Below are positions 8,178-55,000 of a DNA stretch of 64,000 nt, in pieces. Origin of the DNA: Lytechinus pictus. Lineage: Eukaryota. The stretch lies in assembly GCF_037042905.1 (NCBI RefSeq), contig NC_087245.1:18354001-18418000 (forward strand), written 5' to 3'. The notes beneath the pieces are model-generated. The model worked only from the letters and a program-made list of their open reading frames with translations, did not search any database and was not told where the DNA came from. The position numbers and the translations under genes were made by a program. Within the stretch, counting starts at the first letter, position 1. Each line of letters begins with the position of its first letter.

Positions 8178-9662
8178 TTTGTCGGCTGTTCAACAACTTT
8201 CCATCGAACTAGTTTCCAACGTTGTGTCATTGTTGACTATCCAACTAAACTCCAACCTACTAGTTTCCAACGTTGTGTCATCGTCGACTATCCAAATAAT
8301 CTCCAACCTACTAGTTTCCAGCGTTGTGCCGTTGTCGACCGTCCAACAAATCTCCAACAAAATAGTTTCCTACTTTTTCAACGTTGTGCCATTGTCGGTT
8401 GTTCAACTACTTTCCATCGAACTAGTTTCTAACGTCAACGTTGTGTCTTTGTTGGCTGTTCAACAACTATCCAATCAAACACGTTTCCGACATTGTGACA
8501 TCGTTGGCTGTCAAGCAAATCTCCAACAACTAGTTTCTAACGTTGGGCCATTGTCGGATGTTCAACAATTCTTTATCGAACTAGTTTCCAACATTGTCAA
8601 CGTCTGTCGGCTGTTCAACAACTTTCCATCGAACTAGTTTCCAACGTTGTGTCATTGTTGACTATCCAACTAATCTCCAACCTACTAGTTTCCAACGTTG
8701 TGCCATTGTCGACCGTCTAACGAATCTCCAACACACTAGTTTCCAACGTTGTGCCATTGTCGGCTGTTCAACAACTCTCCATCGAACTAGTTGCCGACGT
8801 TGTGTCATCGTCAACTATCCAACTAATCTCCAACCTACTAGTTTCCAACGTTGTGCCGTTGTCGACCGTCCAACAAGTCTCCAACAAAATAGTTTCCTAC
8901 TTTTTCAACGTTGTGCCATTGTCGGTTGTTCAACTACTTTCCATCGAACTAGTTTCTAATGTCAACGTTGTGTCTTTGTTGGCTGTTCAACAACTATCCA
9001 ATCAAACACGTTTCCGACGTTGTGACATTTTTGGCTGTCAAACAAATCTCCAACAACTAGTTTCTAACGTTGGGCCATTGTCGGATGTTCAACAATTCTT
9101 TATCGAACTAGTTTCCAACATTGTCAACGTTTGTCGGCTGTTCAACAACTTTCCATCGAACTAGTTTCCAACGTTGTGTCATTGTTGACTATCCAACTAA
9201 TCTCCAACCTACTAGTTTCCAACGTTGTGCCATTGTCGACCGTCTAACGAATCTCCAACACACTATTTTCCAACGTTGTGCCATTGTCGGCTGTTCAACA
9301 ACTCTCCATCGAACTAGTTGCCAACGTTGTGTCATCGTCAACTATCCAACTAATCTCCAACCTACTAGTTGTCAGCGTTGTGCCGTTGTCGACCGTCCAA
9401 CAAATCTCCAACAAAATAGTTTCTAACTTTATCAACGTTGTGCCATTGTCGGTTGTTCAACAACTTTCCATCGAACTAGTTTCTAACGTTGCCAACGTTG
9501 TGCCTTTGTTGGCTGTTCAACAACTTTCCATGAAACTAGTTTCCAACGTTGTGTCATTGTTGACTAGCCAACTAATCTCCAACCTACTTGTTTCCAACGT
9601 TGTGCCGTTGTCGACCGTCCAACAAAATAGTTTCCAACTTTTTCAACGTTGTGCCATTGTCG
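8178..9662. repeat. Satellite/minisatellite with ~51-55-bp monomer and 527-bp higher-order period
   Basis: Monomer ACTAGTTTCCAACGTTGTGCCATTGTCG...; matching blocks at 8594/9121 and 8751/9278 are both offset by 527; inverted monomer at 7897-7962. Confidence 0.9.
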
Positions 9663-22029: not shown

Positions 22030-25000
22030 CTGACTCAATACTGTCACTCCTTCTCGAGTCAGTTCTTCTGCTGGGGGCCAAAGAAGGAGCGTTCACGTCG
22101 CGGTCCCTGTCAGGAATTCATCCTTCTACCACACTACACAATTTCTACTACTATTAGAGAGTTACAGCTCTACCAAGTCATCATGGCTACCGATGACCAA
22201 TCTGTTGATGAGCACCAGCGTCATAAACACGGGTCCTTGTCAGGATCGGCCCTGAGTATCGTCTCATCTAACATTGAAGGTCTCACAGGCACTAAGCAAG
22301 ATCTTCTGGCTGACCTGTGTGTGAAAAACAATTGTGACAACCTTTGTAGGCAGGAGACACATCGTGGGCCAACAGGTTTTCATCCACGCATCACCGGTAT
22401 GGCCCTCATCGCGGAAATACCCCATGATCAGTATGGCAGTGCGATATTTGTACGCAACGGGCTGATTGTGGACAAATCTTCTGCTTCAGATTCAGACAAC
22501 ATTGAAGTTATAACCATTGAGCTTATGGAAATTTCTGTAAGTTCTGTCTATAAACCGCCTAACCAGAAATTCTCCCTAACTCAAGAAGCCACCTCTGGCC
22601 AAGTAAATGTGACTATTTCAACAGTCACAGCATGGTCTGGGGGTACGGAGAAACCAACGAAGATGGAGAACTTGTAGAGAACTGGTCAGATGCAAATCGG
22701 ATGTCGCTCATTCATGATGCGAAACTTCCCTCCTCCTCCAACAGCTGCAGATGAAGACGCGGTTACAACCCTGATTTGTATCAAACTGCATCGCCCAACA
22801 ATGTGAGAAGGTTGTGCTTGACCCTACCCCACATACTCAACATCGACCAATTGGGCTAAATGTGAATGCAGCTATCACCCCTCGCACAGTTCCCATCCGG
22901 AGACGTTTCAACCTTTTATACAATAAAGTTTTTGTAACAAGATCATATACATGTAAATCCACTCGTAAAAAAATTAAAAAGCCATGGATTTCTCTGATCT
23001 TTATAAGAAAATAAAAGATAAGAATAGAATTTATAAATCATATATATTAAACCCTTGTGAAAGCAACAGGAAAAAGTATGTTAAAGCAAGAAACCATATA
23101 AATAGGTTATTAATGTATGCTCGTAAAGAATATTACAAAACTTAGTTTTTGCAATGAAGGGAAATATGAAACAAACTTGGCAGCTCATCAATGATATATT
23201 ACATAAAACAAAAAATAAATTACCGAATTATATCAATGCTGATGGGAGGCGAATCACAGATTTTAAAGAGATAGCTGATTTTTTTTATAATTATTTTGTC
23301 AACATTGGTTTATCTTTAAACAATTCAATATCTCTGACTTCAAACATCTCTGATAATTTTACCATATTCTTGCCCATGCAAAATTCAAATTCTCTTTATT
23401 TCAAATCTGTTTCTGAGAACGACATCACTGATGTGTTAAAAAGCTTAACTGTACAAATAGTTGTGGCATTGATAATTTTAATCCTCGAGTTATAAAGAAT
23501 GTTGTATATTGTAGTCAAACCATAATGTTTTATCTTTAATTTGTCTATTTTGACTGGTATTGTACCTTTCAAATTGAAGATTGCAAAAGTTATACCTGTT
23601 CATAAGAAAAGTGATGTTCATGATATTTTTAATTATCGACCAATTTCCATACTTCCTTATTTTTCAAAAATTTCGGAAAGGCTATCGACTCAATGATATT
23701 TTATGTACAAATTAAATTTTAAATGAATGTCAATATTGTTTCCTAAAGAATGTATCAACCGAAGCGGCTGTCATTGATTTACACGAATATTTAATTAATG
23801 TTTTCAATAAAAAACTTTATTCTATTGGAGTATTCTTAGACTTAAGCAAAGCTTTCGACACCATTAACTTTTCAGTGCTTATATCAAAACTTAATAGTTA
23901 TGGAATAAGAGGATTACCTCTTCAGTGGTTTCAAAGTTATTTGTACAATATAATTCAGTATCTTTCTTTTAACAATATTTTGTCCAACCCATTAGAGATT
24001 TCATGCGGCATGCCCCAGTAATGACCTGCCTTTTTGTTCTGATAAATTGATATTCATTTTATTTACTGATGACACCAATATTTTATTTACTTCAAATGAC
24101 ATTACTTCTTTATATGACTTATTAAACATTGAATTATTGAATTATTGAAAGTTTCGAACTGGTTTAAATGTAATAAATTGGTAATAAATGCTGATAATTC
24201 TTACTTCATATACTTTTGTTCCCAATATCGACATTTATCAGGTGATATCCTCGATTCATTTCAATTGGAAATGTCAGGAAACTATATCAAACGTAATACC
24301 TCAACCAAATTCCTGGGTATTACTATTGACGAAAATCTTTATAAAAAAAAAACTCATATAGCTCAAATTAACAAAACAATATCTTGGTATGTTGGTGTCA
24401 TCGGCAAACTTCGCCATGTCTTGCCTTAATCCGTTTTTCTAATGTTATACAATACTCTTATTTTACCGCATCTCAGTTACTGCAATATTGTTTGGGCAAA
24501 TACTCATCCAACCAAACTCAAATGTTTATACCTCCTGCAAAAGAGGGTTGTCAGAATAATTACACTTTCTCATTATCAAGCCCATTCTAGCCCACTATTT
24601 AAACAACTCAATATATTATACTAGTTAAATGACTATATGTGTGCAATTCTCATATTTAAACATGTAAACACTCACCTTCCTAAATACATATTGGATATGT
24701 TTGTAAAGAACAGTTTAATTCATACTTATAAAACTAGAACAGGAATCAATAACACAGATGGAATGTGAATACAGAATTTGCTTTATATTCATGTAGGCAT
24801 CATGGTCCTAGAATCTGGAATTTACTCCCTACATGTATTACCTCAATTTCATTTTATAACAGATTTAAGCACAATGTAAAGCTATATTTGATCAAACGTG
24901 ACTCTCGTTGAATTTTAAATGATTTTTTTCTTCTTTCTACTCTCACCCCCCCCCCCCCTCCCCTCCCCTCTGCTTTTCATTCTCTCCTACCCTTTACATG

Positions 25001-27475
25001 TATGTTTGTTCTGGGTTTGTCTTGGTGCAAGACGCAATTCATTTCTATTTACTGAATATTTACTGAATTTGTTCTCCGCTTTTATTAATTGATCAAATCT
25101 TATGTTATTAAGGGAGCTGTCTTGACAAGACCTTTATGGTTTTTTACAGCTATACCTAATTTCAATAATTTTTCTATAACAATATGCATGTACATACTAT
25201 TTAAATTACTTTATTTTATCTTGAAATGCATGTTTTTTATCTAATGTGTTGTTAAATGTTTTTAATATTGGAATTGAATAAAGTTGAACTAAACTGAACC
25301 TGAAAAAAGCAAACTGGGAGCAATTTGCCATAGATCTGGACACATATCTGCAGGATCTCCCTGCACTCCCTACCCATTACGAAGGCTTTGTGAAGTTCCT
25401 GAAGAAATCACCAAGGGAGAATATTCCACGAGGATGCCGCACAAGCTATACTCCGGGCTTGACGGATGAATCTAAGGTGCTGTACAATGAATATGTTAGG
25501 CGCTTTGAGAATGATCCCTTTGGTGCCGATACACTAGAATGTGGGGAAAACTTGACTGCTGCCATCATGGATAGTAGGAAAAGAAATTGGCATGCTTTCA
25601 TTGAATCGACAGATATGACTCACATCAGTAGAAAAGCCTGGAAACAATTCCGATACTCAGCCTAGGCCCCAAGTTACTTCTGACCAAGTGGCCCACCAGC
25701 TTCATGTGAACAGCCAAGGAAACCCTGGTCATCGCCCGCGGAGAGCCAACCTCCTTCAAAGTGCAGGGAAAGCTTCCCACGATCCATCTGAATCCACAAT
25801 GCCTTTCAGCATGTATGACTTGTGCAACGCCGTCAAAGCAATGAAGAACGACAAGGCTGCTGGATTGGATGATGTCCTCTGTTAGCAGATTAAACATCTC
25901 GGACCTGTTACCCTCCAATTGCTGCTTGACATGCTAAACTACTGCATTAGTGAAAATACAATGCCAAAAATATGGAGAAAATCAAGGGTAGTCGCTTTAC
26001 TTAAACCAGGCAAAGTCCCAGCCAGTCCAAAAAGCGACAGACCCATATCTCTGCTCTGTCACACATACAAGCTCTTTGAAAGTCTCCTTCTCAATCGCAT
26101 TGCTCCATTTGTTGATGAGCTTCTTATTCCAGAACAAGTAGGATTTAGGCCAGGAAGGTCTTGTACTAGTCAAATGCTGAATCTGACACAGTGCATCGAA
26201 GATGGTTTTGAGAAAGGGCTGATAACTGAAGCATCCTTTGTTGACCTCTGCAGCCTATGACACGGTAAATCATCGGATACTCACGAGAAAAGTCTTTGAG
26301 ATAACGAAGGACCTTAAGCTGACACAGCTGATGCAGAACATGCTCTCAAACCGACGTTTCTTTGTGAATCTTGGTGGTTTCAGCAGCAGATGGCGGAGGC
26401 AGAAAAATGGTATCCCACAAGGAAGCGTCCTCGTCCCACTCCTCTTCAACATTTACACGAACGACCAACCAATCCACCCAAGTACTAAGAGCTACCTGTA
26501 AGCTGATGACCTTTGTATTGCTTCGCAGAAGCAGTCCTTTGAAGAGGGGGAAAAAGCACTCAGTGATGCACTGGTAGGTCTGACCCCTTACTATATGCAG
26601 CAAATCATCTCCGGGCAAATCCAGAGAGAACCCAACTCAGTGCTTTCCACCTTAAGAACAGAGATGCAGACCGGAGACTGAGGGTTAAATGGTATGGAAA
26701 ATGGTTGGTACACACCAGCAAGCCTATCTACCTCAGTGTCACCCTTGACCGTTCCCTAACATACAGAGAACATGTTGCCAAGACTAAGGCTAAAGTTAGA
26801 GCAAGGAACAGCATCCTGAAGAAGCTTGCCAACACAAAATGGGGGAACAGATGTCAAAAGCATCCGTACAACAGCTCTTGCTCTATGCTACTCAACTGCT
26901 GAGTATGCTGCTCCTGTCTGGTGTAGGTCATCCCATGCTGCAAAGATTGATCCAGCACTGAATGCTGCCTGCAGAGCAATTACTGGCTGCCTGCGACCAA
27001 CAAGAGTAGATGATCTTTATCTACTGTGTTGCATTGCCCCTCCACACATCAGAAGAGAGGTTGCAGCACAGGGGGAAAAAAATAAACAAGAAGATAATCC
27101 TCTTCATCCACTCTACAACTATGAACCCGCCAAAGAGAGACTCAAATCAAGACATAATTTCCTTCACTCGACTGAACCCCTCGATGGCTCTGCTCACAAT
27201 CAAAGGGTCAACTTATGGTCCAACCACCTCCAGTCTGTGACGCACAAGCTTTTATATAGACCTAGCGAGTCACTCCCCCTGGTTCAAGTGAGGAATGGCC
27301 AACCTGGCTATGTCTCAATCGACTACGGTCTGGAACAGGACGGGGCAAAGTCCTTATGCAGAAATGGGGCTACAACATAGATGGGGACACTGCTTGCGAG
27401 TGTGGGGAGGAACAGATGATGCAACACCTTCTGGTCTGCCCCCTCCTACCAGAGCCGTGCACTGCCGAAGATATT
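22030..27475 (+). mobile_element. Degenerate Vingi/Ingi-like single-ORF LINE (APE, RT, C-terminal Cys/His knuckle), interrupted at 22915-25296
   Basis: SIVSSNIEGL..QETHRG; RPISLLCHTYKLFE; GFRPGRSC; GIPQGSVL; RTTALALCYSTAEYAAPVW; CECG..QMMQHLLVC. Confidence 0.8.
22915..25296 (+). mobile_element. 5'-truncated CR1/L2-group LINE inserted into the Vingi-like element
   Basis: RT remnants (YRPISIL, FLDLSKAFDT, KFLGITID, LILPHLSYCNIVW); tail AATAAAGTTGAACTAAACTG; AACCT at both junctions; removing it restores host RRRFNLKKANW. Confidence 0.88.
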
Positions 27476-27736
27476 GTACCCTCCACTGGACAGGGCTTGT
27501 GTAGTGACCCGGCAAGAAGAAGAAGTACTTCTGTTTCTCCGACCATGTATACTTGTAGCTCCATACAACAAAATAACGACAAGCAGGAAGCAAGGCATTC
27601 AGTTCTTATACCTTTACAGAGGAAATCATGCTCATCCTGTTGTAGCAGGTTCCAATAAAAATTTAAGAGTTTCGTTCAGAAACCTCTTGCTGCCAAGCAT
27701 ATTGCATGGCTCATAATCGAGCATGGAGCTCGTGGA

Positions 27737-27908
27737 GGTGCCGTGGCCGAGTGGTCTAAGGCGCCTGGTTATACATGGAAAGTCCGGGGTTCGATACCCG
27801 GCCGCGGCACCTATGCCCGTGAACAAGGCATTTGATATACAATGCTCTTTTATCCTGCTTTCAAATAAATGAAATGCTATATGCATTATTGGTAACTAGG
27901 TGTGCACT
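27737..27908 (+). mobile_element. tRNA-derived SINE
   Basis: A box TGGCCGAGTGG, B box GGTTCGATACC, acceptor-like stem GGTGCCG/CGGCACC, and a ~95-bp body shared with the copy at 30463-30613. Confidence 0.85.
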
Positions 27909-31009: not shown

Positions 31010-34000
31010 GTAAGTATCACGCTCCCTCCGCGCCTACGCATAAACAAAGGAAAGTCCTGTAGGGCCTATAATTAAATAGGACTTTCCTTTGTTTATCAAA
31101 TTTTGATAATCCAAAGCTCTTGTTAGTGGACGCTCCGGAAGCAATGCTAGAGGATGGGTGGGGGGGGGGCAAGCATCTCCGTGGGCTCATGCCCAATTTT
31201 AAGGCAAAATGGGCCGTATAGGGTTCCATATCTTTAAAATAATTTAGAAATTGAGTGAGCGAAGGAAACGAGCTCATCATATGGTAAGATGTATTCAATT
31301 AATAAAATGGAAGTTTTCATGCACAAATTTCGGTGAATTTGATAACATTTTTCTGCAAAATAATGTAGGTATTCACACTAACCTCTTCCCACACCAATGC
31401 TGGATGCAGCCATGCAGTTGCATATCTGCGTAACATTTTCATAGGATAGACCTTAGACATAGACATATTATTATGTAAAACAGCTGGATCGAGCATTGTC
31501 CGACAAAGGGGGTGGGGATATCCACCTTTCCCCCGTGAGGCTGCGCAAGTATAGCGGGTTGGTTAAAGAATGGAGGTGTTGAATCATTTTTTAAACTTTA
31601 TTATTACGTACACGATTAAATACTTGTAGAAATCGATAATCCGAGCGCTTAGCGCGAACTCAGTTTAATTGACATACTGACATAAAAATGGGCCATGTGA
31701 CTTTTCTTGCAAGCATAAATCCTACTATTTTTGTGGGCATAATGACCTGACAAATTTTTTTTTATAATCGCGTTAACTCTGTCAACGGGAATAACTTGTT
31801 AAAAAGTAGATAAAAACAGATTTCGCTGTTCTATTTTTAGTAAATGATAATATTAAACTTTTGTGTTAAATGATAATGATAGCAGACTGAAGTGGAAGAA
31901 ATTCATGTTCTTGTTATTTTTTTTTCATCCCTTTCATAGCTAATTAATTCTTGTATTATAAATAAAAACAATATGCTACAAAATATGATAAGTGACGAAA
32001 TTTGGTATTTTAGTTATTACAGTATCATGAAAAAAAGGTTTATTTAGCGACTTGGAGCAATGTGCGGATAAGTTGGGATTGTAATAGGTGTGAAGAGGGA
32101 CCGTCAATGAGAAGTGGGAATAAACTATTAAAACATGTTAAAATCTCACAATAATATAACAAAAATAATTAGGTCTTGTATAGCGAACCATGTTATCATG
32201 TTATTTCTCTATGCAATTCCAAACGACTTTGGTTATTTTTACTCTGGCATAAGTCCTGTATATAAGTCTTTATACAATGCGCAATTATTTCATTGAATTA
32301 ATTTTTGCTACACTGTAAAAACTCTGTATAAAATGTCATAGCCGGTCAATATAACAATGTTTAAAAAATTAACAATTACTGTTTAAACTTTTAAAACAAC
32401 TTTTAGAAGAAGTTTTAAATAATAGTTGTGAGAGAGACGGGCCTAAATGAAATTTCAAACAGCGTTTACAGTGTAGTAAGGCCTACCTATTTACCTCAAC
32501 TGGGTCAAGTGTAGCAAATATTAATTTTATTCGCTTCTTGCCTAAGGACAATAGTGCTCCGGCGGGGAATTGAACCCATTGCCTAATTGTGATTCAAACT
32601 GTCAAAGTGTGGAGACACCCCTAAGCCACATCGCATCTATAAAATATCTAATATCAATGTTGGATATTATCTCAAAAGCATTAGCTCTATAAAAAATAAG
32701 GCTTGCAACCAATTTTCTTGTAAATATACGCTAAGATCAATACTAAGTTAGACAATATTGAACGAAACTTTTGGGCCGTTTGTAATTCAACATTTTACAT
32801 TATTTTGATGGCTTAAAAAAGGAAATTGCATTTCTCCATATTTGTTATACATTTCCTTGTTACAAAATTTGGTCAGCAAAAAAGAACTTGACAGATAAGA
32901 CTCAACCACTTCATTTGAATAAACATGATATTTATTTTAAATACGTTATCAATAGATGATGACAGAAAAATATTACTTTTCCAGATACACACAAAATGTA
33001 GTCATGTAGGGTGTGAAGTTGCACCAAGTGTCCCAAGTTACCCTAAATGATTTAGAAAGCAAGATATTGTTTGTGTCTACCTCCAGAACATAATTGTAAT
33101 TTGTAGGGGTTTTCATGTGTATCTGTTAACAAATAATGACAAAATGGATAAAAGTGTGTGGTTTCAAACAAAAAATCAACCAAGATTACAATACACTTGC
33201 TTGTGTATTATAACCAACTAAATAGTAAAGACCTGTTGTCAGATTGTGGGATAAGAGCAAATGTATAAAAAGTTGATCGTTTTTGTGTCAGAGATGATGG
33301 TGTACCAGTTGCCTGGCACGAGCTTAAATAGCTGGCTAAGGATAGCCTTTCATTAAATTGACTAAAAGCATTTGTTTTATTCAATAAAATATTATTTCTC
33401 ATTTAATGTAATCAAATGTATTATTTTGTTATCTTGTGAAGTTTAAAAATACATTCAATTCAATTCACTACAACAGAACTTACACCACCTGAATGTCCTG
33501 CGAATATCATAGTAGAGAGTGACCCCGGAGTATCATCAGGTAATGCAACATGGGCATCTGCCACTTCACAACACAGTGATGACTACCCAATCTTGTACTC
33601 TCCAGAGAATGGCACTTCGTTCTCTCTCGGAGACCATATCGTCACTGCATATCTCACAGATTACCCAAACATCAACTGTTCATTCACTGTAACTGTAGTT
33701 GGTAAGTTATTGAGAATATTTCTTATAGTTTAAATAAGGTTTATATTTACAAAGAAACATATTACGTCTGCCTGAATTGAACAATGTCATTTTAAAGTGA
33801 TGCTCCTACTGGCCTTTCAGATATTTAGGTTTCATAATCAAGATAACAAAAAGATGTTTCAAAAATGAAACGCTCGATATGACTTTAAATTCCGTTTACA
33901 AACTCATGGTCATTGAGCACACCAAATTAATAAAGTTTCCTTCCATCATTAGCTGTATTTTATTTTGTTTCATTGTAGAGGATTTGACACCACCAACCTT

Positions 34001-37000
34001 TTCAGACAATCTGACTGTTTTGCCGTTTAACAATTCCGAAACACCAAATTGGATATTAACTGCTAGTGACAACTCAGGATTTGTAACTCTGACATATTCA
34101 CCCAGCCTTGGGTCGTATTTTCCTCTTGGCGAAACGACAGTGACTGTTACAGCCACCGATAATGCGATGCTAACATCTACGGAGACCTTTATAGTCAAAG
34201 TTACTTGTAAGTCCAACTATTAAGGATTTTTACTTAAAGTACCATTTATGCCCCAGTCACATTTTCTCTACAGCGGCCGTACGCCGAGTCGAAAAAAACC
34301 GTTTTGACATTTTTGTATCAGCTACGTATAGGTGGTTTAAATAAGAATGAATAAAACATGTATTTTTACACACCGTACTGCCGCCGTAGAGCCCAGGGGC
34401 CTCGGAACAGTTTTCAAAGTGGGGGGGGGGGCTGAGCCAGAAGTGGGGAGGGGCTGACCATGCAAAAAATCACAATCATTTGGTCATTTTACGTTTTTGC
34501 ATACAGTTTTGGAAAAAAGTGGGGGGTGGGGTTGGAGCCCCCTCCCCCTCTTCCGCGGCCCCTGAATGTGACTGAGGTATTAATTTCCTAATCGCACGCA
34601 GTATGACCTCCGTCAAACATAGCATTGCTAAGGTTTCGCCCAAATATCATTACTATCGGTTACTCTTTTTATTTTGAGCATAACAATAAATTTTGAATAT
34701 CATAATGTGTACTTGTTTCAATCGTGATATAAGTCGAATTTAATGCTAAAATATCCCAACCCAACCCCAGTCTTAATCATTGATCGAAATCTTTCTCTAC
34801 AGTACTCATAAGATCCAAATATATGCAATAACGTTTATAAAGTACATCTGTGGAGAACAAATGTAAATTAAATTTGGGATAATTCAGAGAAATAATATTA
34901 TGATATCCCGGGGGTATAAGAGATCGCTTGAATACTTGATAAATGATTGAAACATAACTCATTCGGGAGCAGTGTCCTTTGTAGCGGGTTGTGTGGAAAA
35001 TCCACCTGAGTGATCAAGTCAATCTCCCATGTCAATCGCCCATCCATCGCTAACACAATGGTCTTGTATGTGTGTGTATTTGAGTTTTGTCTGACGTGTA
35101 TCAATCAGATATGATTATTTACGTCTGGGACCGACCTTTAATGTCACCATCCGAAAGACATGACCAGGGCTCGAACCTCTGCATCAATTTGTAACTTCCC
35201 CACATAGCTTGGATTACAGGCGCACGCCACAACGCCCAGTCTTGGAACATTCTCCTTAGTCTTACCACAGCCCCCCCCCCCCCCCCCCGCTTCTCCACTA
35301 TCATTTATACAATCCTGCAATCTCCATCTGATAAAGACTTTGGTTTATTTGTTTTACTGTTATTCACTATCATTGATGTGATTAGCTGACGGCTCACCTG
35401 AAACAACGGATTGTCCTGGGAATCAGACACACAACGTCGCACCGTCTCAGGTACCTTATGCAGCAACATGGTCTATACCTTCTGTGACAGGACAAGGATC
35501 CATTACAACTACAAGCGACTATGATCCTAATCATTTGTTCAACGAAGGCACCACCAAAGTCATCTACAAGTCCATAGATGATGCTGGCAGGAGCTCCAAA
35601 TGCTTTTTCACCATTAGAATCATAAGTATGTTCTTAAAAAGTTTTTGTTCAAGTCAGTATTCTATTTTTTACGAGAACTTTTTGTAGGGCCAATCGTCCT
35701 ACTCAACACTTAATGAAGTGTTCAGTTTATTCATTTCTAATGTGAAACAAACTTTAGTCTTTACCAATATAATTGTTATTGTTAACTTTAAACAGTTAAA
35801 AAAAATATCATTATCAGTGTTAGTATTAATAACAATGAATTGTAATAATACTAAATTTATATATTGCAAATATATTGCATCTCTATACCAAAATACTAAA
35901 CTGTGCATTGGCATCTTTGTTATCATCATCGTCGTCATCATCATCGTCGTCATCATCATCATCATCATTTTATTGTTTTCATCATTATTCTCATCATTTC
36001 CATTATCGTTCACTTTTGCCCATTTCATGACATTCTACAAATAATGTAAAGATATGGGCATGTGCTGCGATTTCATAAGATTTTTTTGTTTCTCTTAAGG
36101 GGACCAGACAACCGTCTCCCGAGGCTGTCTAACACATTTCGAAAGTCGAGGGGGCACATCCCCTTCCCTTCCGTTCTTAATCCTTCTCAATGCGATTTTG
36201 TTGCTTAAACAGAAGAGCCAGTCGTCTGTAGCATACAAAAATATAGGAAGTACTTTGGTATTAAACAAATGGGTACTTGAATGCAATGCAATTTTGGGTC
36301 ACATCATGGTTTAGGAAAAACATAGATCAGATGGTCTAGTATTTGCTTTAGGGTTCTGATCAGGGTGACCAGACTTCCCGAATTTCAAGGGACAGTCCCG
36401 TATATCATCAATTTGTCCCGCGTCCGGTATCATTCTGTCCAGGACGCCGTTTGTCCCATATTTTACCATTTTGAACACACTCATCGCCAAGACAATAATA
36501 ATGAATTAAAGGCAACAATCAAGCGGAGTACAAGGTTACGTGTGGTTTATTGAGATCGTCGCGGCCAAGAGGCCGATCACAATTAAGTATCGATATCACA
36601 TAATTTACAACCCGATTATTAAACAACAAACACATTGGCGTGACCTATTTTCTTCTCTCCTTCCTAGAATCAAATGCATTGTAAATTATACTTTTCAACT
36701 GTCTCTTAAAATCAACCTATAAAACACTATCATTTCCTAAACGATGATATGTAAAGTAAACAAAAATGAAAAAAATGCTTATTAACATCTTCAAACACGG
36801 GAAATATGCCAGTGGCATCATTTACATATATGTAGGCCTCATTCAACACAATCTTATCACTATTTATAAAGGGCATTGCAAAAACTTAATGGGCAAATGC
36901 ACCGTATAACATCTGAAGCAGTTAAATGCATCCATTATAGTATACATTGTATAATCGTCATTTGTATCAGTCTTATCATCAATCATCGACACATCAAATA

Positions 37001-43000: not shown

Positions 43001-46000
43001 CTGTTGATCGTTTCTTCGTGGTCCTCGTCATTGTTATCATACCACAAGACGGGAGTAACCATGAAAAGAAACATAAACATAATTCTCTACAAAACTTTTT
43101 TTTCTGCTTTTGTTGATCAGTCACCCCTGATGGATCACCACCAGATATTGTATCTTGTCCTGAAGATATAAGTAAGACTGAGCCTGCTGGAACAGTAGAG
43201 GTTTCGGTAACTTGGGATGAGCCCGTCTTCAACGATGCCGTTAGTGGTACCGAACTCTTCATCCAACAGTCTAAGCAATCTGGATCAAAATTCCCTGTTG
43301 GTTCAACCGAGGTCTTCTATTCTGCCATGGATGGCAACTTCAATGCAGCGTACTGTATGTTTAACGTGACTATAAACTGTAAGTATTTCATAGAGGATGC
43401 AAATAAAGTATAGAGCCATTCATTTCCTTTTTTATTCCAAATGTCAATTATATAAGATTCATCAATAGAAGAAAATAGATTTTTCAGTTTTAATTTTCAT
43501 GAATATTTCAATCAGCTTATTAATTAAGCTCGAAGGTTCTTGAAAAAGAAAATGGCATACACCCTTGCTCAAGATAATTCACCCCTTTTTAATGTTAATC
43601 TCGTGACGCGACACTTGACCCAATAATTCTGACCTTTCATAGCTTGCTTAATTTTCTGTAAAGAAGGGTTTGATTGACTCATAATATTTCAAATTGAAAT
43701 CTGTTGTTGGACTTACTTCTGATTAACTCATTAAAAGGTCCAAAATTATTTCCCTTTGACTCTACACTTCAAAATAACCACCATGTAAAAATGAGACTCG
43801 CCTGACATTTTACTGTGATTTTTATCATACGTGTCATTTTGGAATTAAACTAATAGGCCTTTTAATAATCAATATTAGAGGATGGAAGATGGTCAAATAT
43901 TAGGATTTACTATATTCTTATATTGTATTCTACTGCAATTTCTATTTCTTCCAATTGATTGAATTTTTTTCCTTCTAGAATTGAATCAGTAGTTTTAGTC
44001 TTTTGTTTCTAGATCCATGGGAAGGTAAAAAAATGGTATGATATATTATAGTCTCGCTTCACAGAAAAGCTATATGCACTTAGTTTGGTGTGTAAATGGG
44101 GGACTGATGACGTCAGCCACTCACTATTTCTTTCATAATCATGAAATATGAAATACTAAAAAATTATTGTAATTACAAATGATTCCTCCCTGGACATTTG
44201 GCATTTCATTGTAACCTATTGTGATTTGATGAAGAGTCCCCTTATTATCAAATCTGCACAAATTGAAATATTGTAAAATTCACACAATGAAACAAGGACG
44301 AAATAGTAAGTGACGTCATCAACTCTTCCAAATGCATGTCATTGTGCTCTGAATGACCGTGAAAATGGGGAAAATAACTCTTGTTTTGCATCCAATTTTG
44401 ATGAAATTATACAAATAAACAATTTGTCGGGGTGGATTTACACCAGTCCAGAAAATATCATTTGTGAGTTTTTTTTATAAGTTTGTATAAGAAAATCGGT
44501 CCTATGTTATGATTCAAGATCTGATTTAGCAAACGAGAATATGTTATCATTATTTCTTACGTAAAGTTGTGTGCATCTTGAACTATATTTATGGAAACAC
44601 AAGCCAAATCTCTTCTCGGGAAAAGTCAATGTAGATATAATTATTGCCACGCCGTTCGCACAATTTTTGATAGATGATTTGTCAGAAATCTATGACCAAA
44701 CACGAAAGACCTCAATGTCATTCATCTTGTATTTCAAGACAGAGATCTAGGATATAGCCAGTGGTAGTGACTCCGCTATCCCCAATCTCCGTAAGATATA
44801 TATCTACCAAGTTACGTTGCCATTTTAATTGATGCTCTAGAATGTATATATACGGAATGATTCCATATAAACAAACAAAAATAATATTAGTTTTAACGTA
44901 ATATAATCTGAGTGATTGGCTTAATAAAGGTCAAGTCCACCCAAGGAAAATGCTGACGTGAATAAATAGAGAAAATGAAAATTTAATCAAAATTTGATGT
45001 AAAATAAGAAAGTTATGACATTTTAAAGTTTCGCTTATTTTTCACAAAAACAGTGATATGCACAACTAGGTGAGTCTGTCGATGATGTCCATCACTCACT
45101 ATTTCTTTTGTTTTTTATTGTTTGAATTATACAGTATTTCATTTTTATAGATTTGACAATAAGGACCAACTTGACTGAACCATATAGCATTAAACAATGC
45201 TAATTACACATGTTCAGGGAGGAAATAATCGTTGTATCACTTGACAATGAGGATAAAATAAGAATATTTCATATTTTATATATTAAAATACAAAAGAAAT
45301 AGTGAGTGGACGACGTCATAGTCTCCTCATTTGCATACCAGCCAGAACGTGCATAACCGTTTTGTAAAACTAAGCGAAACTTTAAAATGTCATAACTTTC
45401 TTATTTTACATCCGATTTTGATGAAATTTTCAGTGTTATGCTTGTTGGATTTTTCTCTTTTTATTCAAATCTACTCTCTGTTGGGGTGGACTTGTCCTTA
45501 ACAATTTTCTTTCTGCAGTGATGAAAGACAATGATTCACCTAATATCACTGGTTGTCCTGACAACTTTACACATTGGGTACCTGCTGGGGAGTCGATGGC
45601 CACCGTTTCTTGGATAGCCCCAAATATCACGGACAATTCTAATTTCACCGTTCAAGTTTCTCCTGAACCAGGAGATTCATTTACAGTTGGAACTGACACT
45701 GTCGTGTCCTACACTGCTACAGATGTTAACAATAATGTTGCATCTTGTATCTTTACTGTATCTGTCACAGGTTAGTTAAACATGATACATCTCGTCTCAA
45801 TTAATCGGAGAAAATGATTATTTTTAGATTTGTAATATGAAGTCAAAGGTGTCACCTTAGAAATAAATCATTAGCGGTTGAATTTTGGCGACTCAATTTT
45901 GCACTAAAAGAGTCCTATCTGCAAGTATTCGTATCGAATAAAATATATATTACCTTTTCAAGAGATTATCTTGATGGTTCAATCTTTCAACAACAAAAAA

Positions 46001-49000
46001 ATGCTAATAGGCCCTACTAACCGACATGGATCATTCGTTTATAATTCTTTGCGGATATTCGCAAAAGAAAAAGATGAAATCGACGGTTTAGAATGACCTA
46101 ATCGAGAATATAAATCTACGTTCATTATAGTGCATGAATCCGGTATGAATATGATCGGCTGGTTCTTTGGATCACGCACTGGGAAATAAATTTCAGCCTA
46201 TTAACATCTTTTAAAAGTCTTACATTGTGTTACATCATTTGAAATCAGTCCATGAAACTAGTGAAGTGGGCTTTACTTTAATATAAAATCACGTGTTGAA
46301 TTTCTTGCAGAGGATAGTGAGAAACCTGTGATTCAATGTCCGGATAATATTACCATTATTGTGACTCCTGATATTACAAGTCAAGATGTAACATGGTCGA
46401 TTCCACTTGCAAATGACAACTCTGGTGATGTCACCGTAACCACAAGCCCACTATCTGGCTCAACATTTACTCCGTCGGTGTCAGCGCCTGTGACTGTCAC
46501 GGCTGTTGACGCCTACGGAAATATTGATACCTGTACCTTTCTTGTGAAAGTTCTTCGTAAGTTTGATAAAACAAATTCTTTATACTGCCACTTAATTCAA
46601 CCTGTCCATGCGCACTCAAGACATTTAAATCTTATTATGACCAGTCTCAGTCCCACTCCATAATGTTGTAGATGACTCAACTGAGGAAAATCAAAATCTC
46701 TTGAATTTCCACCATTTTTTTAAAGCTTATTTAATAATTATTGACCGACGAAGTGTCTTTTTCGACTAGAATTTCTACCTAATGGCAACATGGGCAGGCC
46801 CATAGTGGCGATAAATGATGTACTGGTTTTCATATCGTTATACAAGAATGTTAAGCATCACTACCTGCAAAACTAGAAACCATGTGGGCAACATACGATG
46901 TTTGATTAGTATTTCAATCCCAAAAGGCGTGACGAGTGAGGGAACGCTACCCTTAGCGGCGATTACTGGCGAATAGTGCTTAAAAAATTACAATCCTTCT
47001 TTCTAAAATACCTCGACTATGTACCTGAAACGAGACTCTTTTCGACGCCTTTTTTCTGGACGCCCACAGGGAGCTTTTATGAGCGCCCATAGCATTCACG
47101 ATATACATTTTTTTTTTCGATGCCCATGTATACCTGGCTGTAAAATTCCTGATGTAGATGAAAATATTGCCAAGATCCCCGGACCTTGTGCTTCATAGTT
47201 CAACTGCCTATCAACAGCGCTATGCAGTACAGTTTAGAAAAGTCGATATTATTATCTCCTTTTTTGTTGTTGTTGCTTAGATGATGTTAGTCCAGTCCTA
47301 ACTTGTCCCGATGTCACTGTGAACACCGACGATGGTCTAAGGACAGCAACAGTCACGTGGCCAGATGTAGTTATTACCGATGACTATACAAATGTTTCAG
47401 CGCTCATGGTGAGATCATTATTTTAATTTTCCTGTGTGTTGATTGCACAACAATTTTAATTTGGTTTCCATCGCACACCTAGCTGACTCCCAATTTCATA
47501 GTATTCTCTTTCCTTTCTTATTAAATTTATGTCGTTTCCATATTCATTAACATCTCATTTATATTAATCAATAATGCTTTCATTAATAGCATCGTATTTA
47601 CTTCCATTTCTGTATTATTATCATTACTAAAATTTTCATTAAACTTATGTTTCCATTTTCGATTACCATTACAACAAAATGATTTCATGCAAAATACTGA
47701 TTTCTAAAGTTTCATTTTCATGTGTTGTCCTGTGGTATTTCTTTGAAAATATTTATTTCCTCACCAAAATACTTTTAAATTATTGAGATGTTCTGGCTCT
47801 GGTTGGCAGCTCTGCTGGTACCGTTTCTCTCTCGTCCATAACGGTTATCTTGTCTTTTTTTTTCCTTGTTGCTTTTTCAGTACCAAAACCAGATAACTTC
47901 AACTCCAATTTTGTTGTACATTCCCTTTCTGTTGCTTTTTGATGAACATTTGCATATAAATCACTCAAAACGTTTTTTAGAAATCTGAGTTTGGCCATTA
48001 ATTCCTCCCAACTCCCTATTTTACACAATGTAAATTCGATTTCATTAAAAGGATCATTTAATTCTCTTTAAAATGATGCCATACTTGTTATGATCATGCG
48101 AAAAGAGCAGGATTCAAAAGTGTTGGATGAGATCTAAATTGAAAAGCTGCAAAACGAGCAGAAATGGTCACAAAGGGACAATAAAGTACATGATTATTTG
48201 TCTGAGTCAATAAAGATGAAAATCTATTCAAATCAAGCCCCTGCTTCTTCCTTTTTTTTCTGGTTTATGTAGTGATGATTCTGTGAGATGGTTTGAGTTG
48301 TGGTTTGAAATACCCATGCATGTTTGTTTGTTTGTTATATGTTTGCTTCTGCAGAGGTATGTTTGATTACATGTTAATGTTGATATTAAGGTGCATGAAA
48401 ACAAAAGAAACCGCTGAGAAACTCGCTCATCACCATGGAAAAAAGAACAGTGACTTTCAATATTGTGCCATTTTGCAACTTTTGAATTTTGACCTTGCCC
48501 CACATTTCAAGGCACTGCACCTCCATGTGAACCATAAGTATATCATGTAGGGTATCATTTTAAAGAAAATTAAATGATTTGTTCATATTAATCACCTATT
48601 AATATTCACTAAAACTGAGGAGGGATTATCGATCAAAGTTAGATTTCCAAACTTTTTTGAGGAGTTTTATTTATCTTTGTTTCTGCATGTTCATATCTTC
48701 TCGAGATTTCGCCATAGACTTACCAAAATGCGTCACTGTTATTATACCAAATCAACTTGCAAAACCACTTTCATTTCAGTTCTATGTTGACATATACCTG
48801 CGAAGTATGACTGAAAGATTCCGCAAAACGGAACACTCAAGTTGTAAAATTTGACAGATTTCTTTTGCCAAATATGTTGCACCAATCGTTAAAACCATGA
48901 AGTTTCTAACGATGGAATCATAACGAACAACAAATGCAGCTTTCCATTTGTAAAAACAGAATAAAAGTACAAATAAATAAATAGGGGCACTGTGTATCTT

Positions 49001-52000
49001 TGATGGCGACGCGTGATGCCGCCAATTTAATGGAAGAGGTGATCTATGTTAAAAATAGATCACTGGGAATATTTCATTCTTTATTCAAATAAAATACCTG
49101 AATATTATTCACATGACAAAATATAGACCAAAGCCGTATTGTGGACCGACATTGCGCTAGATATTGTAATACTGCTTCAATATTGAAAAAACCCTTAAAT
49201 TTGACTTTTTATATATTTTATATGCTTCCAACAGACTAAACTTTGTGAGAAATATTCATCAGTGATGTTAAGTGTCATTGTTGAGACTACTTGCCGAGCA
49301 ATTTACAAATGTATTTCAATAATTTGTCCCTTCGCCCCTGGAAAAGTGAGCAACATATACTGCCCATGTTATGAGACCGAAAAGTAATTGTCATGGCAAC
49401 ACCACTGGCTTACAGATGGGGTCGAAGGCCATGGATCCCTTAGATATCGACGATCAAGAATTATTTTTTTAATCCATGAAAAAAAAAAATTTTCACGATT
49501 TTTATTTGTATTTTCATTTTATCCCATACGTCATGTCTGACCCCCATAAACTTTTTGGGCTCATTACGCCACTGCAAAGCATAATTTCTTTTGAGCCAGT
49601 TTGCCACTTAGTAAAAAAAAGAACATTTTGTCTACAACTTGCGAGAAGGATCTAATATATGCCTTCATCATAATTTTCTGTTCGCATTATCATTTCATTC
49701 CATTTCTCTCACAGTACCTGTCTATGTGCAGTCAATGTTTTATCATTGCATATATGCAAATTTGGCATGTCAATGTTTAAAGTTTAAAGAATGATATATA
49801 TTCTCTAGAAATCCTTTAGAAATAGGCTTGAATTTGTAAAAGTTTTTTCATAGATATTGATGATATTTTTTCCCCACAGATCACTAGATCACACGGAACA
49901 ATGATAACCAACATGGCGTATGCTGATGACCCAGTAACCGTCACAATAACAGCTGAAGATGAACGTGGTAACATAGGAACATGTTCGTTCTTAGTTGATG
50001 TTGTAGGTTAGTACGAAACAATTAATTTTTCAAGAAAGACCAGAATATAGTGTTTCCTTAACAATATGGTGTCTCCGATTGCATTTACTTATTCTGCTGC
50101 CTTTAGGTGCCGCTTTATCGATGGTGTTTTAATTGCCATGATAATTAAGTATATGGACTGAGTTAATGAAAGTTGGACATAAGAGTAATCAAGGACCGGA
50201 ATCACTAATCATCTTAGATTAGTTTCAGGTCAAATTATCAAGGTAAAAGGTCATTTAGGGTCAATGATCTTTAACAATGTTGGGGTATCCATACTGAAAT
50301 CTTAAGCAAGATTATTTGAAATGACATAACTTACATGAAGGGAGTATAAGCCTAGTACATAAGAGCCTATTTCATGAAACTGGGAAAAATGTAATGAAGT
50401 ATCATGGATCTTCTTTTTCGAGTTGTAGGTCACATGATCAAGGTCAAAGGGGTTTTTTTTAGCGAAAATCTCGTGCAAAATCTTTTTGCAAATTAGTATT
50501 TAAAAAAAGGAAAAATAAATAAGAAAAAGAAACAAAGAGTGACCTTCCATGATAATGCTATCAGTCTTTCACTATGTTTGCCGACTTCATCGAATTTTCT
50601 CAATACAGACGATGAGAAACCAGTGTGGTCATCGTGTCCCAGCAACATGACAGTAATGGCTATTGTTGGAACAAACTTCCAGAATGTGTCTTGGACACAG
50701 CCAACTGTCACCGATAACTCGGGAAATGATCCAATCAGGAGTAATAATCCGCGATCTTCCCAGCTCTTCTCTGGGGGTACTTGGCCTTTGGTCTACACAG
50801 CTACCGATGATTCTGGCAATGTTGGAACTTGCGAATTCTTTGTCACTGTCACCGGTATGTTTCCACAGTTCCAATTTCTTTGTCTTTGACATATCTGACT
50901 ATTAGTACAATTTGCTTTCAATTTCTTTGTCTTTGACATATCCGACTATTAGTGCATTTTGCTTTCAATTTCTGTGTCATATCTGACTATCAGTGCAAAA
51001 TATGCTTAGATAGAATCCATTTTGTTATTATTGTTTGATATCAAGTTGAATTACAGTAATCCAATCTATTACAAATGGAGGAACATAATTATAAGAAGAT
51101 TTTATCTGTCTTTATATTTTTAATGATTTGTCCCTTAAAGTCCTAAAAAAAAGCACTTAGCACGGACGCTGTTATTATTTTTTTTAACTTTCACTTTAAG
51201 AAAGAAATGGTAAGAGTGAACATTAAGGTACACCAAACAGAGGACAACTGAAGCAGACAGAAATGAGCAAACTGTGAAAAACTGTCACAAGATATGTCAC
51301 GGCACTCTTTTGAGAGCTTTAAAAAAATGTGCAATACTCGAAAAGCTTCAATCATGTCTTTACCATTTCAGAATTGTTTTATTGATGATAAGGGCCAGTT
51401 CCTCTTTTAATACACTTTATATGCACAAGATAAGTCATTTATATTGAGTGATGCATAATATAAAAGAAATTCAATCAATACTACACCTTGTAACATCCAA
51501 AATATCAGATTGCTTGATAAGCAAAGGAACATCGGGACTTCGATAAAGTACTATACAGATTTGCCATGCATGGTGTTGGCTATGTGTTGGCTAAAATTCT
51601 TTTCGATGCCTTTGTACTTCTTAATACTGGATATTACATTTTTTTCATTAAATATATTTTGATCTTTTAGTTGACGATGATGTACCTGTATTTTCCAATT
51701 GTCCATTGGCTGATCTTCGAGTAAACTCTGAGCCAAACAGCAATTCGGTCGTGGTTGACTGGGGTGAGATCCTTGCTACAGACGACTCTGGAAACCCTAC
51801 AATAACATCGAACTTTGCAAGGAATCAACGTCTTGAAATCGGTTCCTATAATATTGAGTACCAAGCCATAGATATCCATGGCAATATAGGATACTGTAGA
51901 TTCACCGTTCAGGTAGTTGGTGAGTAATGACAGTTATATTTTAATTGCAGAGCAGCTGTAGTTACTCAGAATTATATACATGTAGCATATTTGAAAGTAT

Positions 52001-55000
52001 TTCCCAATATTTCCTTCTCGTGTTTACACGTTGGGAATATAGTGACTTCATAATGGGCACAATTTTATGAATTTCAAAGTTTTGTGATATTATTCAATAC
52101 ACTAAAATGCTATAATTATCGCATTTTGCAAGTCCAATATTTTACTTTGATATGAGTGCTTTTTCCCTTATTCATTTTTGGGGTCTTCTGTATAAATACT
52201 GATTAATAACAGAATATACGCGTTTAAAGCAAGTTACATTGTGCGACATTCTTCTTTCAGATGGTGATGCCCCAGGATTTAATGGATGTCCCGATAATAT
52301 TGAAGTATTCATAATGGCCTCACAGCCTGATGTCATTGTTACATGGGAAGAACCAACATTTACGGACAACTCGATTCAGGGTTCAGCAACAGCAACACGG
52401 TCACCCAGCAGCCCTGCTCCAGGATCTCGACTGTCTGCTGGTATCCATCGAATTGAATATATAGCTATGGATGACGCGGGAAATACCGCCTCAACCTGTT
52501 CATTTACTGTTGAGGTCGTAGTAGAGACAGGTACGCCTTTTACCCCAATAAATCTATACATACATTTATATACAATACATACATATATATATATATATGT
52601 GTGTGTGTGAGGGTGTGTGTGTGTGTGTGTGTGTGTGTATGTTTTTCCTTCTATATTGTCAAATGACTAGATCTGGAAGTATTTTATAAAACAATAGATG
52701 CATGCTTTCATGAATTCGTCCATTATACGATCTATTCACTGTCACTATCGTTGAGGCTTTGCTTAACCCATTGCACTCAGCCTAACGACTTCGTGTAATA
52801 GATTGAACAGAGCCTCAACTCGAATGCGGATATATTGCGTCATGAACTCATGTGCTGTCATTATTCGTGTACAATTTATTTTACAGATACCATTGAACTG
52901 GATGGATCACTTCTCCTTGATGTTGTACGTGGGATTGATGGACAGTTCAGCCTGACAACAACGCGACTAGAGTTCCTCAGAAATGACGTAAGCTGAATCA
53001 TGGACCTATTAGGTCCATGGCTGAATTAAGTGTTTTTACGCCATGTTCGAAACATTCTTGATAAAACGGCACTCCCATGAAATAGCATACACAAGTTGAT
53101 TGAGACTACTCAGCATGGTAGGATATAAGATCCTTTATAATAAAAATGAAGTACTTCAAAGAAAACAATTAAACGTTAGGTGGGACGTTATACTTGGAAG
53201 AAGGACTTTGAGTTTTGACTTTCGAGTATAACCTAACGTTTAACAGAAAATCATTGGAAATTATAAAGAGGTGGTATCGTGTTACTGAAGCATGTAAAAC
53301 GTTGTGAAAATAAGTCTGAAGTAGATTTGCTTCAAAAGAAGATGATTGATAAATACATTATATAATACAACGGTTATAGTATTCTTAATGAAAAAAAATC
53401 TTAGTTGTATATAGATATAAGATATGATACAATTCGTTTAAGAATTTAAAATCGGTTAATAAACATGATAAACCTGGAATGAACTAAATGGATGAAGGAT
53501 AGTTGCAAATGAGGTTTAAAGATGTTTTTTGTTTTTGTTTCTTGTACGAGTAAGAAGTGCTGGTTGAATCATTAGTGATTGTGTTCAGAATACACATACA
53601 AAAATATGTAATATGGTAAATGAGAGAGAGAAAAACAAAGTTGGGCTTGAAAATATTTCTAAGAGGATGTACACTAAAGAAATAATTGTTGTGAACATTA
53701 CAAAGCATTGAATGAACAACTCAAATGAGAGCAAAGAAAAATGTTCCTGACCATCTTTAAGAATATATATTTTCAAACTAAACATGTGATTTAGAAGTTG
53801 GAACCCTTTTCATGAATATTTTCCATTGATCTTACTTTTTGGATCAACCACGGGTGCTACTTTTTTTCAAAAAATCTAATACAATGTCTTCTTTCTCTCG
53901 TTTTTCCTTCAGCTTGATGATCTCTTCAGAATCTCCTCCAGCTTAGCTCCACAATTTGTTGGTATTGAAATCCAAGTATCAACATTTGACGTCTCGAATA
54001 ACTTACTGGCCCAATTCCGTTTACATCTCAAAAACCCGTCGTACTACAATGAAGAAGAAGTAAAGCAAGCTTTTGAATCAGCTCTCACTGGTGGAAGAGA
54101 CTTCGCCACGACAAATACATATGTACCAGGGTCGTTTGATCTCAGTACGTATATCTGTTTTCAATTCATGTTAGCATTGATACAAATATTGTATAATTAA
54201 TTTATGAACATGTGTTTATATTTCTCCACTTTTCAAAATTTCCATCCTCCTTCGCAAGCACAAACACACCTCGACTAATACATCCCCTCAACATATATGC
54301 CTAATAACCTACTCGCACCCACATTAACTTTTCTCCTACTTATAAAATCACGCTAAATTCATTGCATTGCTATTTTCTTTTAAGATAAAAGTCGATAATC
54401 TTCATAAACGAGGTGATAATATATTTCCTGGAAATACAATGTGAATATAGGATATAGTGACTAAATTAATTACACATTACTGCAATCAGATATGCATTAT
54501 TCGATTATTCTTGGGAACTTGTATTCAATTTAATTTCTTGATTATTTTGTTGTCTGTTTCCTTAAAGATGTGAGAGAATTTCGCGGCCATATTACCTTGT
54601 TTAGGATTGTGTCATCCTCTCCGAATGAAGTGGATTTCTTTACATGCTGTAACAATCCATCAAGCTCTTCATATACTGATTTGGAAGACAAAGTAAACCC
54701 GGGAGTGAGTTTGAATTTTGGTTATTGTAACAAAAGTCCATATATCTTCATATTTTAGATTTTCTACTTTAATCTGAATCATACTCTGAGGCCCATAACA
54801 CATAGCTTAGCAATGATCGTAAAATATCTTTCTACGATTGATTGCATTGACTACAATGTACAATCAATCGTGAGAATTAAGCGTACGATCAATCGTTTAC
54901 CTTTGTGTTATGGGACAGAGATCAGGTTAAGAAATGACCTGAAAAACTTTGAGGTCTTCCATGCTAATTTTCAAATATGACCACATGAATGTGAAAGGTG

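Follow-up and report, generated by a model that had tools for sequence, protein, structure and literature searches.

A young and abundant SINE family of the sea urchin Lytechinus pictus whose 5' head very probably derives from the host 7SL RNA

Short interspersed elements (SINEs) derived from 7SL RNA are described as extremely rare, and the available text of Vassetzky et al. 2026 (PMC13023118) names supraprimates, one hagfish and the shrew mole as their only known hosts. In the same portion of that source, all described 7SL SINEs have a central deletion of about 183 nt and keep both 7SL ends; the supraprimate and hagfish families are likewise treated as central-deletion products with both ends in the accessible sections of Kojima 2020 (PMC7245038). 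Alu, FLAM and B1 of Euarchontoglires and the shrew-mole element Urop copy 7SL at their 5' end from base 1 onwards and consist of 7SL sequence only; they end in A-rich tails, are mobilised by L1 and often occur as dimers (PMC13023118, available text). The hagfish SINE1, in contrast, is chimeric, with 7SL sequence joined to parts of a tRNA SINE that is older: SINE1-1_EBu (Ebu1-1, from Eptatretus burgeri) keeps 96 nt of the 5' part and 44 nt of the 3' part of 7SL, which together form a full Alu domain after the central deletion, and its tail matches RTE LINEs (PMC7245038, accessible sections). With regard to the minimal functional unit, the accessible part of a preprint (Moldovan, Yin and Moran 2024, PMC11760393) reports that the 46-nt 5' Alu domain binds SRP9/14, is required for Alu retrotransposition and, in HeLa cells, suffices for a single round of the process. 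A further relevant module is the Deu domain of another group of SINEs, whose first part of about 34 nt is Nin-DC (PMC4758252, in the text available) and for which only chordates and echinoderms appear in Table 1 of PMC5804259.

The element described here lies in a 64,000-nt stretch of the Lytechinus pictus genome (contig NC_087245.1, positions 18,354,001 to 18,418,000), hereafter the window, where one copy of 172 nt occupies positions 35240-35069 of the minus strand. From the 5' to the 3' end of this copy, with the two flanking repeats given last, its parts are as follows.

35194..35240, minus strand: 7SL-derived head, element nt 1-47 (Rfam RF00017 match and host 7SL alignment)
35166..35193, minus strand: linker and B box (exact B-box-type motif)
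35127..35165, minus strand: core resembling the 5' (Nin-DC) end of the Deu SINE domain (alignment to the host tRNA-Deu SINE)
35078..35126, minus strand: 3' tail of 49 nt with a 7-bp stem (hairpin fold of the family-typical tail)
35069..35077, minus strand: (CA)n terminal repeat (sequence; the length differs between copies)
35239..35244, minus strand: putative target-site duplication, 5' copy, CAAGAC (flank-word comparison)
35061..35066, minus strand: putative target-site duplication, 3' copy, CAAGAC (flank-word comparison)

The first base of the element, 35240, corresponds to base 1 of 7SL RNA, and the last two bases of the 5' CAAGAC are at the same time the first two bases of the element. The head corresponds to the Alu 5' domain in its helices 2, 3 and 4, and the A-box region known from 7SL genes lies within it. 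Next come a linker of 16 nt and the B box GGTTCGAGCCC at 35177-35167, and this linker and B-box part is likely to form the second half of a composite Pol III promoter, judging from the motifs present. The core, GGTCATGTCTTTCGGATGGTGACATTAAAGGTCGGTCCC, spans 39 nt (35165-35127) and includes the TGTCTTTCGGATG...TAAAGGTCGGTCCC segment. In the family, the two arms of the tail stem read CAGACGT and ACGTCTG, one of which is mutated in the window copy, and the family-typical tail folds into a hairpin at -13 kcal/mol. An earlier sequence-only reading of this DNA had placed the element at 35069..35241 and had pointed out the B box, the segment within the core, the (CA)n repeat and CAAGAC at both ends. 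All of these were located in the sequence, and the proposed range holds from 35069 to 35240; the G at 35241, in turn, belongs to the flank and target-site duplication.

To define the origin of the head, the element was compared with the Rfam model of metazoan SRP RNA and with the 7SL genes of its own host. Positions 35240-35156 match Metazoa_SRP (RF00017) significantly, with 31 bits and E=3.3e-6, in an alignment that covers helices 2, 3 and 4 and skips 225 model positions; since this score lies below the gathering score of 70 bits, the element is no 7SL gene. True 7SL genes number seven in the host genome (812 Mb covered, in 368 contigs) and score 272-283 bits. When element nt 1-36 are aligned with two of them, L031 and L037, 34 of 35 aligned positions are identical, plus one inserted A, and the head shows no mismatch over 34 positions against L037, the 7SL gene of contig 12. 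The element and the L037 variant both have T at base 3 and, within GGAAGT, the A that is its pair partner in helix 2, and nt 1-30 are identical to L037 in 22 of 32 family copies. The letters shared with the host 7SL genes include ones that depart from the Rfam consensus. Structurally, helix 3 and the U-turn are identical to those of host 7SL and the helix-2 pairing is kept, the inserted A weakens helix 4, and the A-box region is that of the host 7SL genes. The likeness stops after GGAAGT, at element nt 47, which corresponds to 7SL nt 45; the remainders of the two sequences, from element nt 48 and from 7SL nt 46 onwards, are not similar, with 129-323 of 1000 shuffles reaching the alignment score. 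Set against the definition of SINE1, the family thus carries the 7SL 5' part from the first base, and of the two 7SL regions, 5' and 3', that a SINE1 possesses, it has no 3' part.

The sub-threshold Rfam score is the one point in favour of regarding the 7SL likeness as the product of chance, of human Alu contamination or of a truncated 7SL retropseudogene, and it has to be set against the identity of 34 of 35 positions with host 7SL genes, including letters unlike the Rfam consensus, against a non-7SL remainder that is common to more than 1,000 copies, and against the occurrence of the family in contigs of four independent DNA runs. The letters of the head are those of host 7SL, which excludes human contamination and vertebrate transfer. 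Taken together, the host 7SL match, the count of body 16-mers reported below and the four DNA runs refute all three origins, whose probability we place close to nil. The 7SL-derived 5' head claimed by the sequence-only reading is therefore upheld both by the match to the Rfam SRP model and by the alignment to the host 7SL genes, and so is its dismissal of human Alu contamination, given a head that is near-identical to host 7SL with lineage-specific letters.

The family to which the window copy belongs is young and abundant, and its dispersed copies number more than 1,000. In the genome, a 16-mer of the body, taken from the core, has 1,182 exact occurrences and its reversed control has none; a genome DNA search returned 1,809 first-look candidates, of which 40 were scored and gave 41 listed matches at 92-100% identity. 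These numbers establish the element as multi-copy rather than single-copy. The best copies are about 98% identical, a closeness of sequence that suggests recent or ongoing activity of the family. At 765 of the 1,182 body 16-mer sites an exact head 13-mer is found 40-70 nt upstream, and 19 contig 1 loci without the exact head word, judged by eye, comprise 8 with mutated heads and 11 that are 5'-truncated or rearranged, with no other head type among these sampled loci.

Several subfamily forms can be distinguished. The 172-nt form, represented by the window copy, stands beside a form of 179-180 nt with a 7-nt duplication at the B box, and this duplication is a feature of the older subfamilies; variants of the helix-4 loop exist among the copies, and the L064 lineage, which is rare, lacks the extra A in its head and differs at the end of its tail. 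In four DNA runs from two organisms, between 1,909 and 2,859 contigs per run fall on the SINE part, and the last ~25 nt of the SINE differ in the contigs of the second organism.

As is general for SINEs, the family consists of short non-coding units of 172-180 nt, dispersed as copies with common ends and different flanks. Among the 32 best copies, the flanks are unrelated in most cases and the ends are sharp and common, lying at base 1 and at (CA)n. When the 20 nt before the element were compared with the 20 nt after it, a shared flank word of at least 6 nt was present in 12 of the 32 copies and absent from the other 20; in the control, made of mismatched flank pairs, 54 of 992 had such a word. 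The longest shared words measure 9-11 nt, and the CAAGAC of the window copy measures 6 nt. Furthermore, 5'-truncated copies are present, and their break points vary. At the level of sequence, such 5' truncations and short, irregular duplications are the marks of a putative LINE-type target-primed reverse transcription.

Independent mobility must nevertheless be weighed against the idea that the element is a piece of a larger repeat, such as a satellite unit, a transposon or a segmental duplication. Several groups of copies do share flanks, namely L039-L043, L022/L026/L051, L009/L025/L066 and L084/L085/L087, and have therefore later multiplied as parts of larger repeats. Since many copies are nested in larger, later-multiplied repeats, the copy number overstates the number of retrotransposition events. 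For the family as a whole, however, this origin is very improbable: apart from the unrelated flanks and sharp common ends of most of the 32 best copies, the contigs of other copies part from the window at 35065-35069, with hundreds of loose ends precisely at this 3' boundary, putative target-site duplications are more frequent than in the control, and the truncation points differ from copy to copy. A dimeric organisation of the SINE was also considered and rejected; the tandem pairs among L039-L042 share both flanks and are thus nested in one larger repeat.

The body that follows the head is non-7SL sequence. The core aligns with a full tRNA-Deu SINE of the host at 26 of 33 positions with 1 gap, a score reached by 7 of 2000 shuffles, and it agrees with AmnSINE1 in the Deu alignment of Kojima 2020 (Suppl. 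Fig. S4, PMC7245038) at about 28 of 36 positions by eye. The likeness to Deu or Nin previously noticed in this segment is in this way substantiated; it is limited to the first ~34 nt of the domain, the other ~100 nt being absent. In DeuSINEs and Nin-DC SINEs (AmnSINE1, EbuSINE1/2, SINE2-3_SP), these first ~34 nt, of the form CGTCYYTCGGAT..GACGTTAAA..GGYCCC, likewise stand right after the B box, but the sea-urchin element differs from DeuSINEs, as they are described in the available parts of PMC4758252 and PMC5804259, in having a 7SL head instead of one from tRNA or 5S and in missing the ~100 nt of the domain. The host tRNA-Deu SINE, which has 301 exact motif matches in the genome, ends in an (AAT)n tail, and its head differs from that of the element. 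No tRNA-headed parent with the same body was seen at any of the 19 sampled loci, nor by regular-expression search in 230 kb of sequence. The element had been interpreted as a chimera of a 7SL head and a tRNA-SINE body: the 7SL head on a non-7SL body stands, and the tRNA-SINE nature of the body is indicated only by the B box and the short Deu-like piece.

In the case of the linker and B box, a second source has to be considered, since the first ~90 nt of the element may come wholly from a 7SL gene locus, with the 5' 45 nt joined to a B-box-like hairpin that lies past the terminator. Such a joining would have happened by an internal deletion or through a read-through transcript, and it would supply the B box without any tRNA-SINE source. 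In 6 of the 7 host 7SL genes the sequence GGTTCGAGTC(C/T) begins some 16-43 nt beyond the annotated 3' end, and in the C10-cluster genes and L034 it forms a perfect or near-perfect T-arm-like hairpin. Moreover, the linker and B box of the older subfamily agree with the 7SL 3' flank at 25 of 32 positions with a 2-nt gap, and the score of this comparison was reached by 0 to 2 of 2000 shuffles (L031, L034, L035, L036), whereas the same segment fits the B-box region of the host tRNA-Deu SINE worse (89-278 of 2000 shuffles). When the B box is masked, however, the upstream 24 nt retain p ~0.03-0.05 in the older subfamily and 0.11-0.15 in the L064 lineage; because this signal is marginal, most of the likeness to the 7SL flank amounts to a shared B box, which is usual in any Pol III element. 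The L064-type copy that shares GCCGAG with the 7SL flank is, in addition, a single duplicated insertion. Overall, we regard derivation of the entire ~90 nt from a 7SL locus as unlikely. A captured 7SL promoter as source gene was rejected as well: the places where the upstream block of 7SL genes precedes a head are limited to two 7SL genes, three SINE copies of contig 10 and, on contig 11, a single 7SL-like site.

The explanation that we consider very probable is that of a young, high-copy SINE whose first 47 nt come from host 7SL and which is likely transcribed by Pol III and copied by a LINE. Its birth was most likely a fusion in which a 7SL RNA or gene of the contig 12 type supplied the 5' end and an older Deu-type SINE supplied the part that runs from the B box to the tail. 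The A-box region within the 7SL part, together with a B box ~50 nt downstream, would create a type-2 Pol III promoter; on sequence alone, the element has both boxes and contains no internal TTTT terminator. Once transcribed, the 47-nt head is predicted to fold as the Alu 5' domain and to bind SRP9/14, by analogy with Alu, and in the resulting complex the RNA may reach ribosomes engaged in translation of the partner LINE, a route that has been proposed for Alu. The LINE reverse transcriptase would then recognise the 3' stem-loop and (CA)n, leading to insertion by target-primed reverse transcription. A similar logic of tail recognition is reportedly at work in the eel UnaL2/UnaSINE1 pair, and the tail stem-loop of the sea-urchin family is likely to be the recognition site for its partner LINE.

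Besides the nesting of many copies in larger repeats, described above, four points weigh against this explanation. First, the head is without the 3' strand of the Alu domain, which every described 7SL SINE keeps. Second, the fold of the whole element is no better than that of shuffled sequences (z = 0.22), and helix 4 is weakened by the inserted A. Third, as given above, 20 of the 32 copies have no shared flank word of 6 nt or longer. Fourth, searches with tail words yielded no partner LINE. Aimed at tails that stand apart from a SINE body, four pattern searches returned 0, 5, 1 and 56 matches, all of which are SINE variants or singleton truncated copies, and no multi-copy element carrying the tail without the body was found by these exact or near-exact words, which a diverged LINE tail could escape. 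A LINE sharing the 3' tail, which the sequence-only reading had proposed to look for, accordingly did not emerge within the reach of such words. Three individual leads were discarded: at L047, which is unrelated upstream, no reading frame of a LINE lies within 9.5 kb; C1:10887438 is part of a tandem repeat and is 5'-truncated; and the tail variant of L084/L085/L087 sits in a larger repeat whose flanks are common on either side and which contains no long reading frame. Nor does the tail share any sequence with the two LINE-like regions present in the window.

Comparison with the described systems shows both shared and divergent features. SINE1-1_EBu, in the accessible sections of Kojima 2020 (PMC7245038), resembles the sea-urchin element in several respects: its head comes from the host's own 7SL, it is a young chimera with other SINE parts, it has some thousands of copies, and its origin is independent of the mammalian SINE1 families. 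Both elements end in a microsatellite in place of poly(A), so that the partner is in both cases likely to be a non-L1 LINE. The sea-urchin element differs in having only 7SL nt 1-45 (element nt 1-47) and no 3' part, in combining a Deu-like core with a separate B box, in its non-vertebrate host and in that no LINE was found for it with exact or near-exact tail words, whereas the hagfish tail has its RTE counterpart. With Alu, FLAM, B1 and Urop, as far as the available text of PMC13023118 describes them, it shares a 5' end that starts at base 1 of 7SL and the SRP9/14 binding through the Alu 5' domain that is predicted for it by analogy; in contrast to these families, its 7SL part is limited to a head of 47 nt, its body and tail are foreign, and it ends in (CA)n. 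The tree-shrew Tu-type SINEs and the bushbaby GarnAlu are also chimeras of 7SL- and tRNA-derived SINE parts (PMC7245038, accessible sections) but, unlike the sea-urchin element, they go back to a single Euarchontoglires SINE1 ancestor and contain whole 7SL-derived monomers. The minimal 46-nt 5' Alu domain (PMC11760393, accessible part) is very nearly the same piece of 7SL as the nt 1-45 kept by the family; the former is an engineered human construct assayed with L1, while the latter is natural, belongs to another phylum and is known from its sequence. Judged in this way, the family would work like a SINE1 and is built differently.

An independent birth of a 7SL-headed SINE in this lineage, which had been put forward as a possibility, is supported by the host-type head, the non-7SL body and the multi-copy state of the family. 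Among the papers searched, as distinct from the repeat databases Repbase, Dfam and SINEBase, none was found that describes a 7SL SINE from sea urchins, from echinoderms generally or from any invertebrate. We lean modestly towards the fuller claim that this is the first invertebrate 7SL-headed SINE, a reinvention of the Alu trick in the echinoderm lineage that uses the 45-47-nt 5' Alu domain, a non-L1 partner engaged via stem-loop and (CA)n, and a B box that perhaps came from the 7SL 3' flank. If a further, non-vertebrate origin with a different architecture and a non-L1 partner is true, the advantage of a 7SL head would be independent of L1 and of vertebrate biology; presumably the advantage is that SRP9/14 delivers the RNA to the ribosome. 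As a family with the 5' domain only, it offers a natural test of whether ~46 nt of 7SL are enough. The young copies, if active, could serve as a marker system and as an experimental model in animals well suited to the laboratory, and the finding is of clear interest to mobile-element research.

At the window locus itself, the copy departs from nearly all others at 35142 and 35160, both of which are CpG-to-TpG or CpA changes, and the unique flank at 34716-35051 is without contig cover in all four DNA runs. One reading frame of the window gave weak retroviral-protease-like matches only in a protein-atlas comparison. COX1 was not found in the assembly. An echinoderm host is indicated by the full Deu-domain SINE of the genome, by the marine or coded origin of the indexed sequencing runs and by the HYR-domain exons of the window. 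The window has at least five HYR-domain exons, and the SINE copy lies antisense between HYR-domain exons of a plus-strand gene.

In the host genome, three 7SL genes lie in tandem on contig 10, and each of them carries a full copy of the 7SL-headed SINE 35 nt upstream. These copies are diverged, with approximately 79-87% identity to the SINE, and occupy the following positions within the loci fetched from contig 10:

L036, 1315-1465: SINE copy before a 7SL gene
L035, 1294-1465: SINE copy before a 7SL gene
L031, 1290-1461 and 877-1048: SINE copies before 7SL genes

With some 2,000 copies distributed over 812 Mb, such an association is unlikely to arise by chance. Two sequence blocks flank the SINE in each case: the conserved upstream one is GCCCTCAATA.GACAATAAA, and the proximal one is AT.TCCTTAATTTCG. 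The upstream block is located at -66 in two other host 7SL genes, and ends up 33 nt before the SINE in the contig-10 genes; the upstream promoter of these three genes is divided by the SINE.

In the 3′ flank of six of the seven host 7SL genes (loci L031-L036), a motif resembling a B box, GGTTCGAGTC(C/T), begins about 16-43 nt beyond the annotated 3′ end of the gene and is followed by GGTGTC and then by a second T run. In the contig-10 cluster and in L034, the motif forms a T-arm-like hairpin. The yeast SNR6 gene has a downstream TFIIIC site and, by analogy, the motif 3′ of the 7SL genes may represent a putative site of this kind.

A single HYR domain is encoded in each of five reading frames of the window (E-values from 7e-6 to 9e-17):

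33801-34223, plus strand: HYR-domain reading frame
45425-45775, plus strand: HYR-domain reading frame
46265-46663, plus strand: HYR-domain reading frame
50497-50889, plus strand: HYR-domain reading frame
52203-52610, plus strand: HYR-domain reading frame

These resemble exons from a hyalin-like gene with multiple HYR domains, and the window SINE lies antisense within one of its introns. A run of 18 G residues (35271-35288, minus strand) is found 30 nt upstream of this SINE, and several other copies are likewise flanked by long G or C runs.

Whole or truncated SINE copies are also nested within larger repeats (loci L039-L043; L022/L026/L051; L084/L085/L087), which multiplied later with the SINE already inside; the copy number of the family is therefore inflated. 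The host additionally harbors a classical tRNA-Deu SINE family (loci L067-L078), with a full Deu domain, an (AAT)n tail and 301 genomic matches to an exact 21-nt motif.

Elsewhere, the window includes a LINE-like region and two tandem arrays:

22074-22129, plus strand: match to the CPEB3 (HDV-like) ribozyme family (42.7 bits, E=4e-8, over the gathering score)
25886-26260: reverse transcriptase, among the reading frames of the LINE-like region
27725-27830, plus strand: tRNA-like SINE head, GTGGCCGAGTGGTCTAAGGCGC ... GGGGTTCGATACCCGG
8179-9662: tandem array, 28 copies of a 51-nt unit, 72% matches
59253-59913: tandem array, 10 copies of a 66-nt unit, 98% matches

ARAGORN called no tRNA genes in the whole window. 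The ribozyme match occupies the 5′ end of the LINE-like region, a known arrangement for HDV-like ribozymes in LINEs, and the tRNA-like SINE head is located directly beyond the 3′ end of this region.
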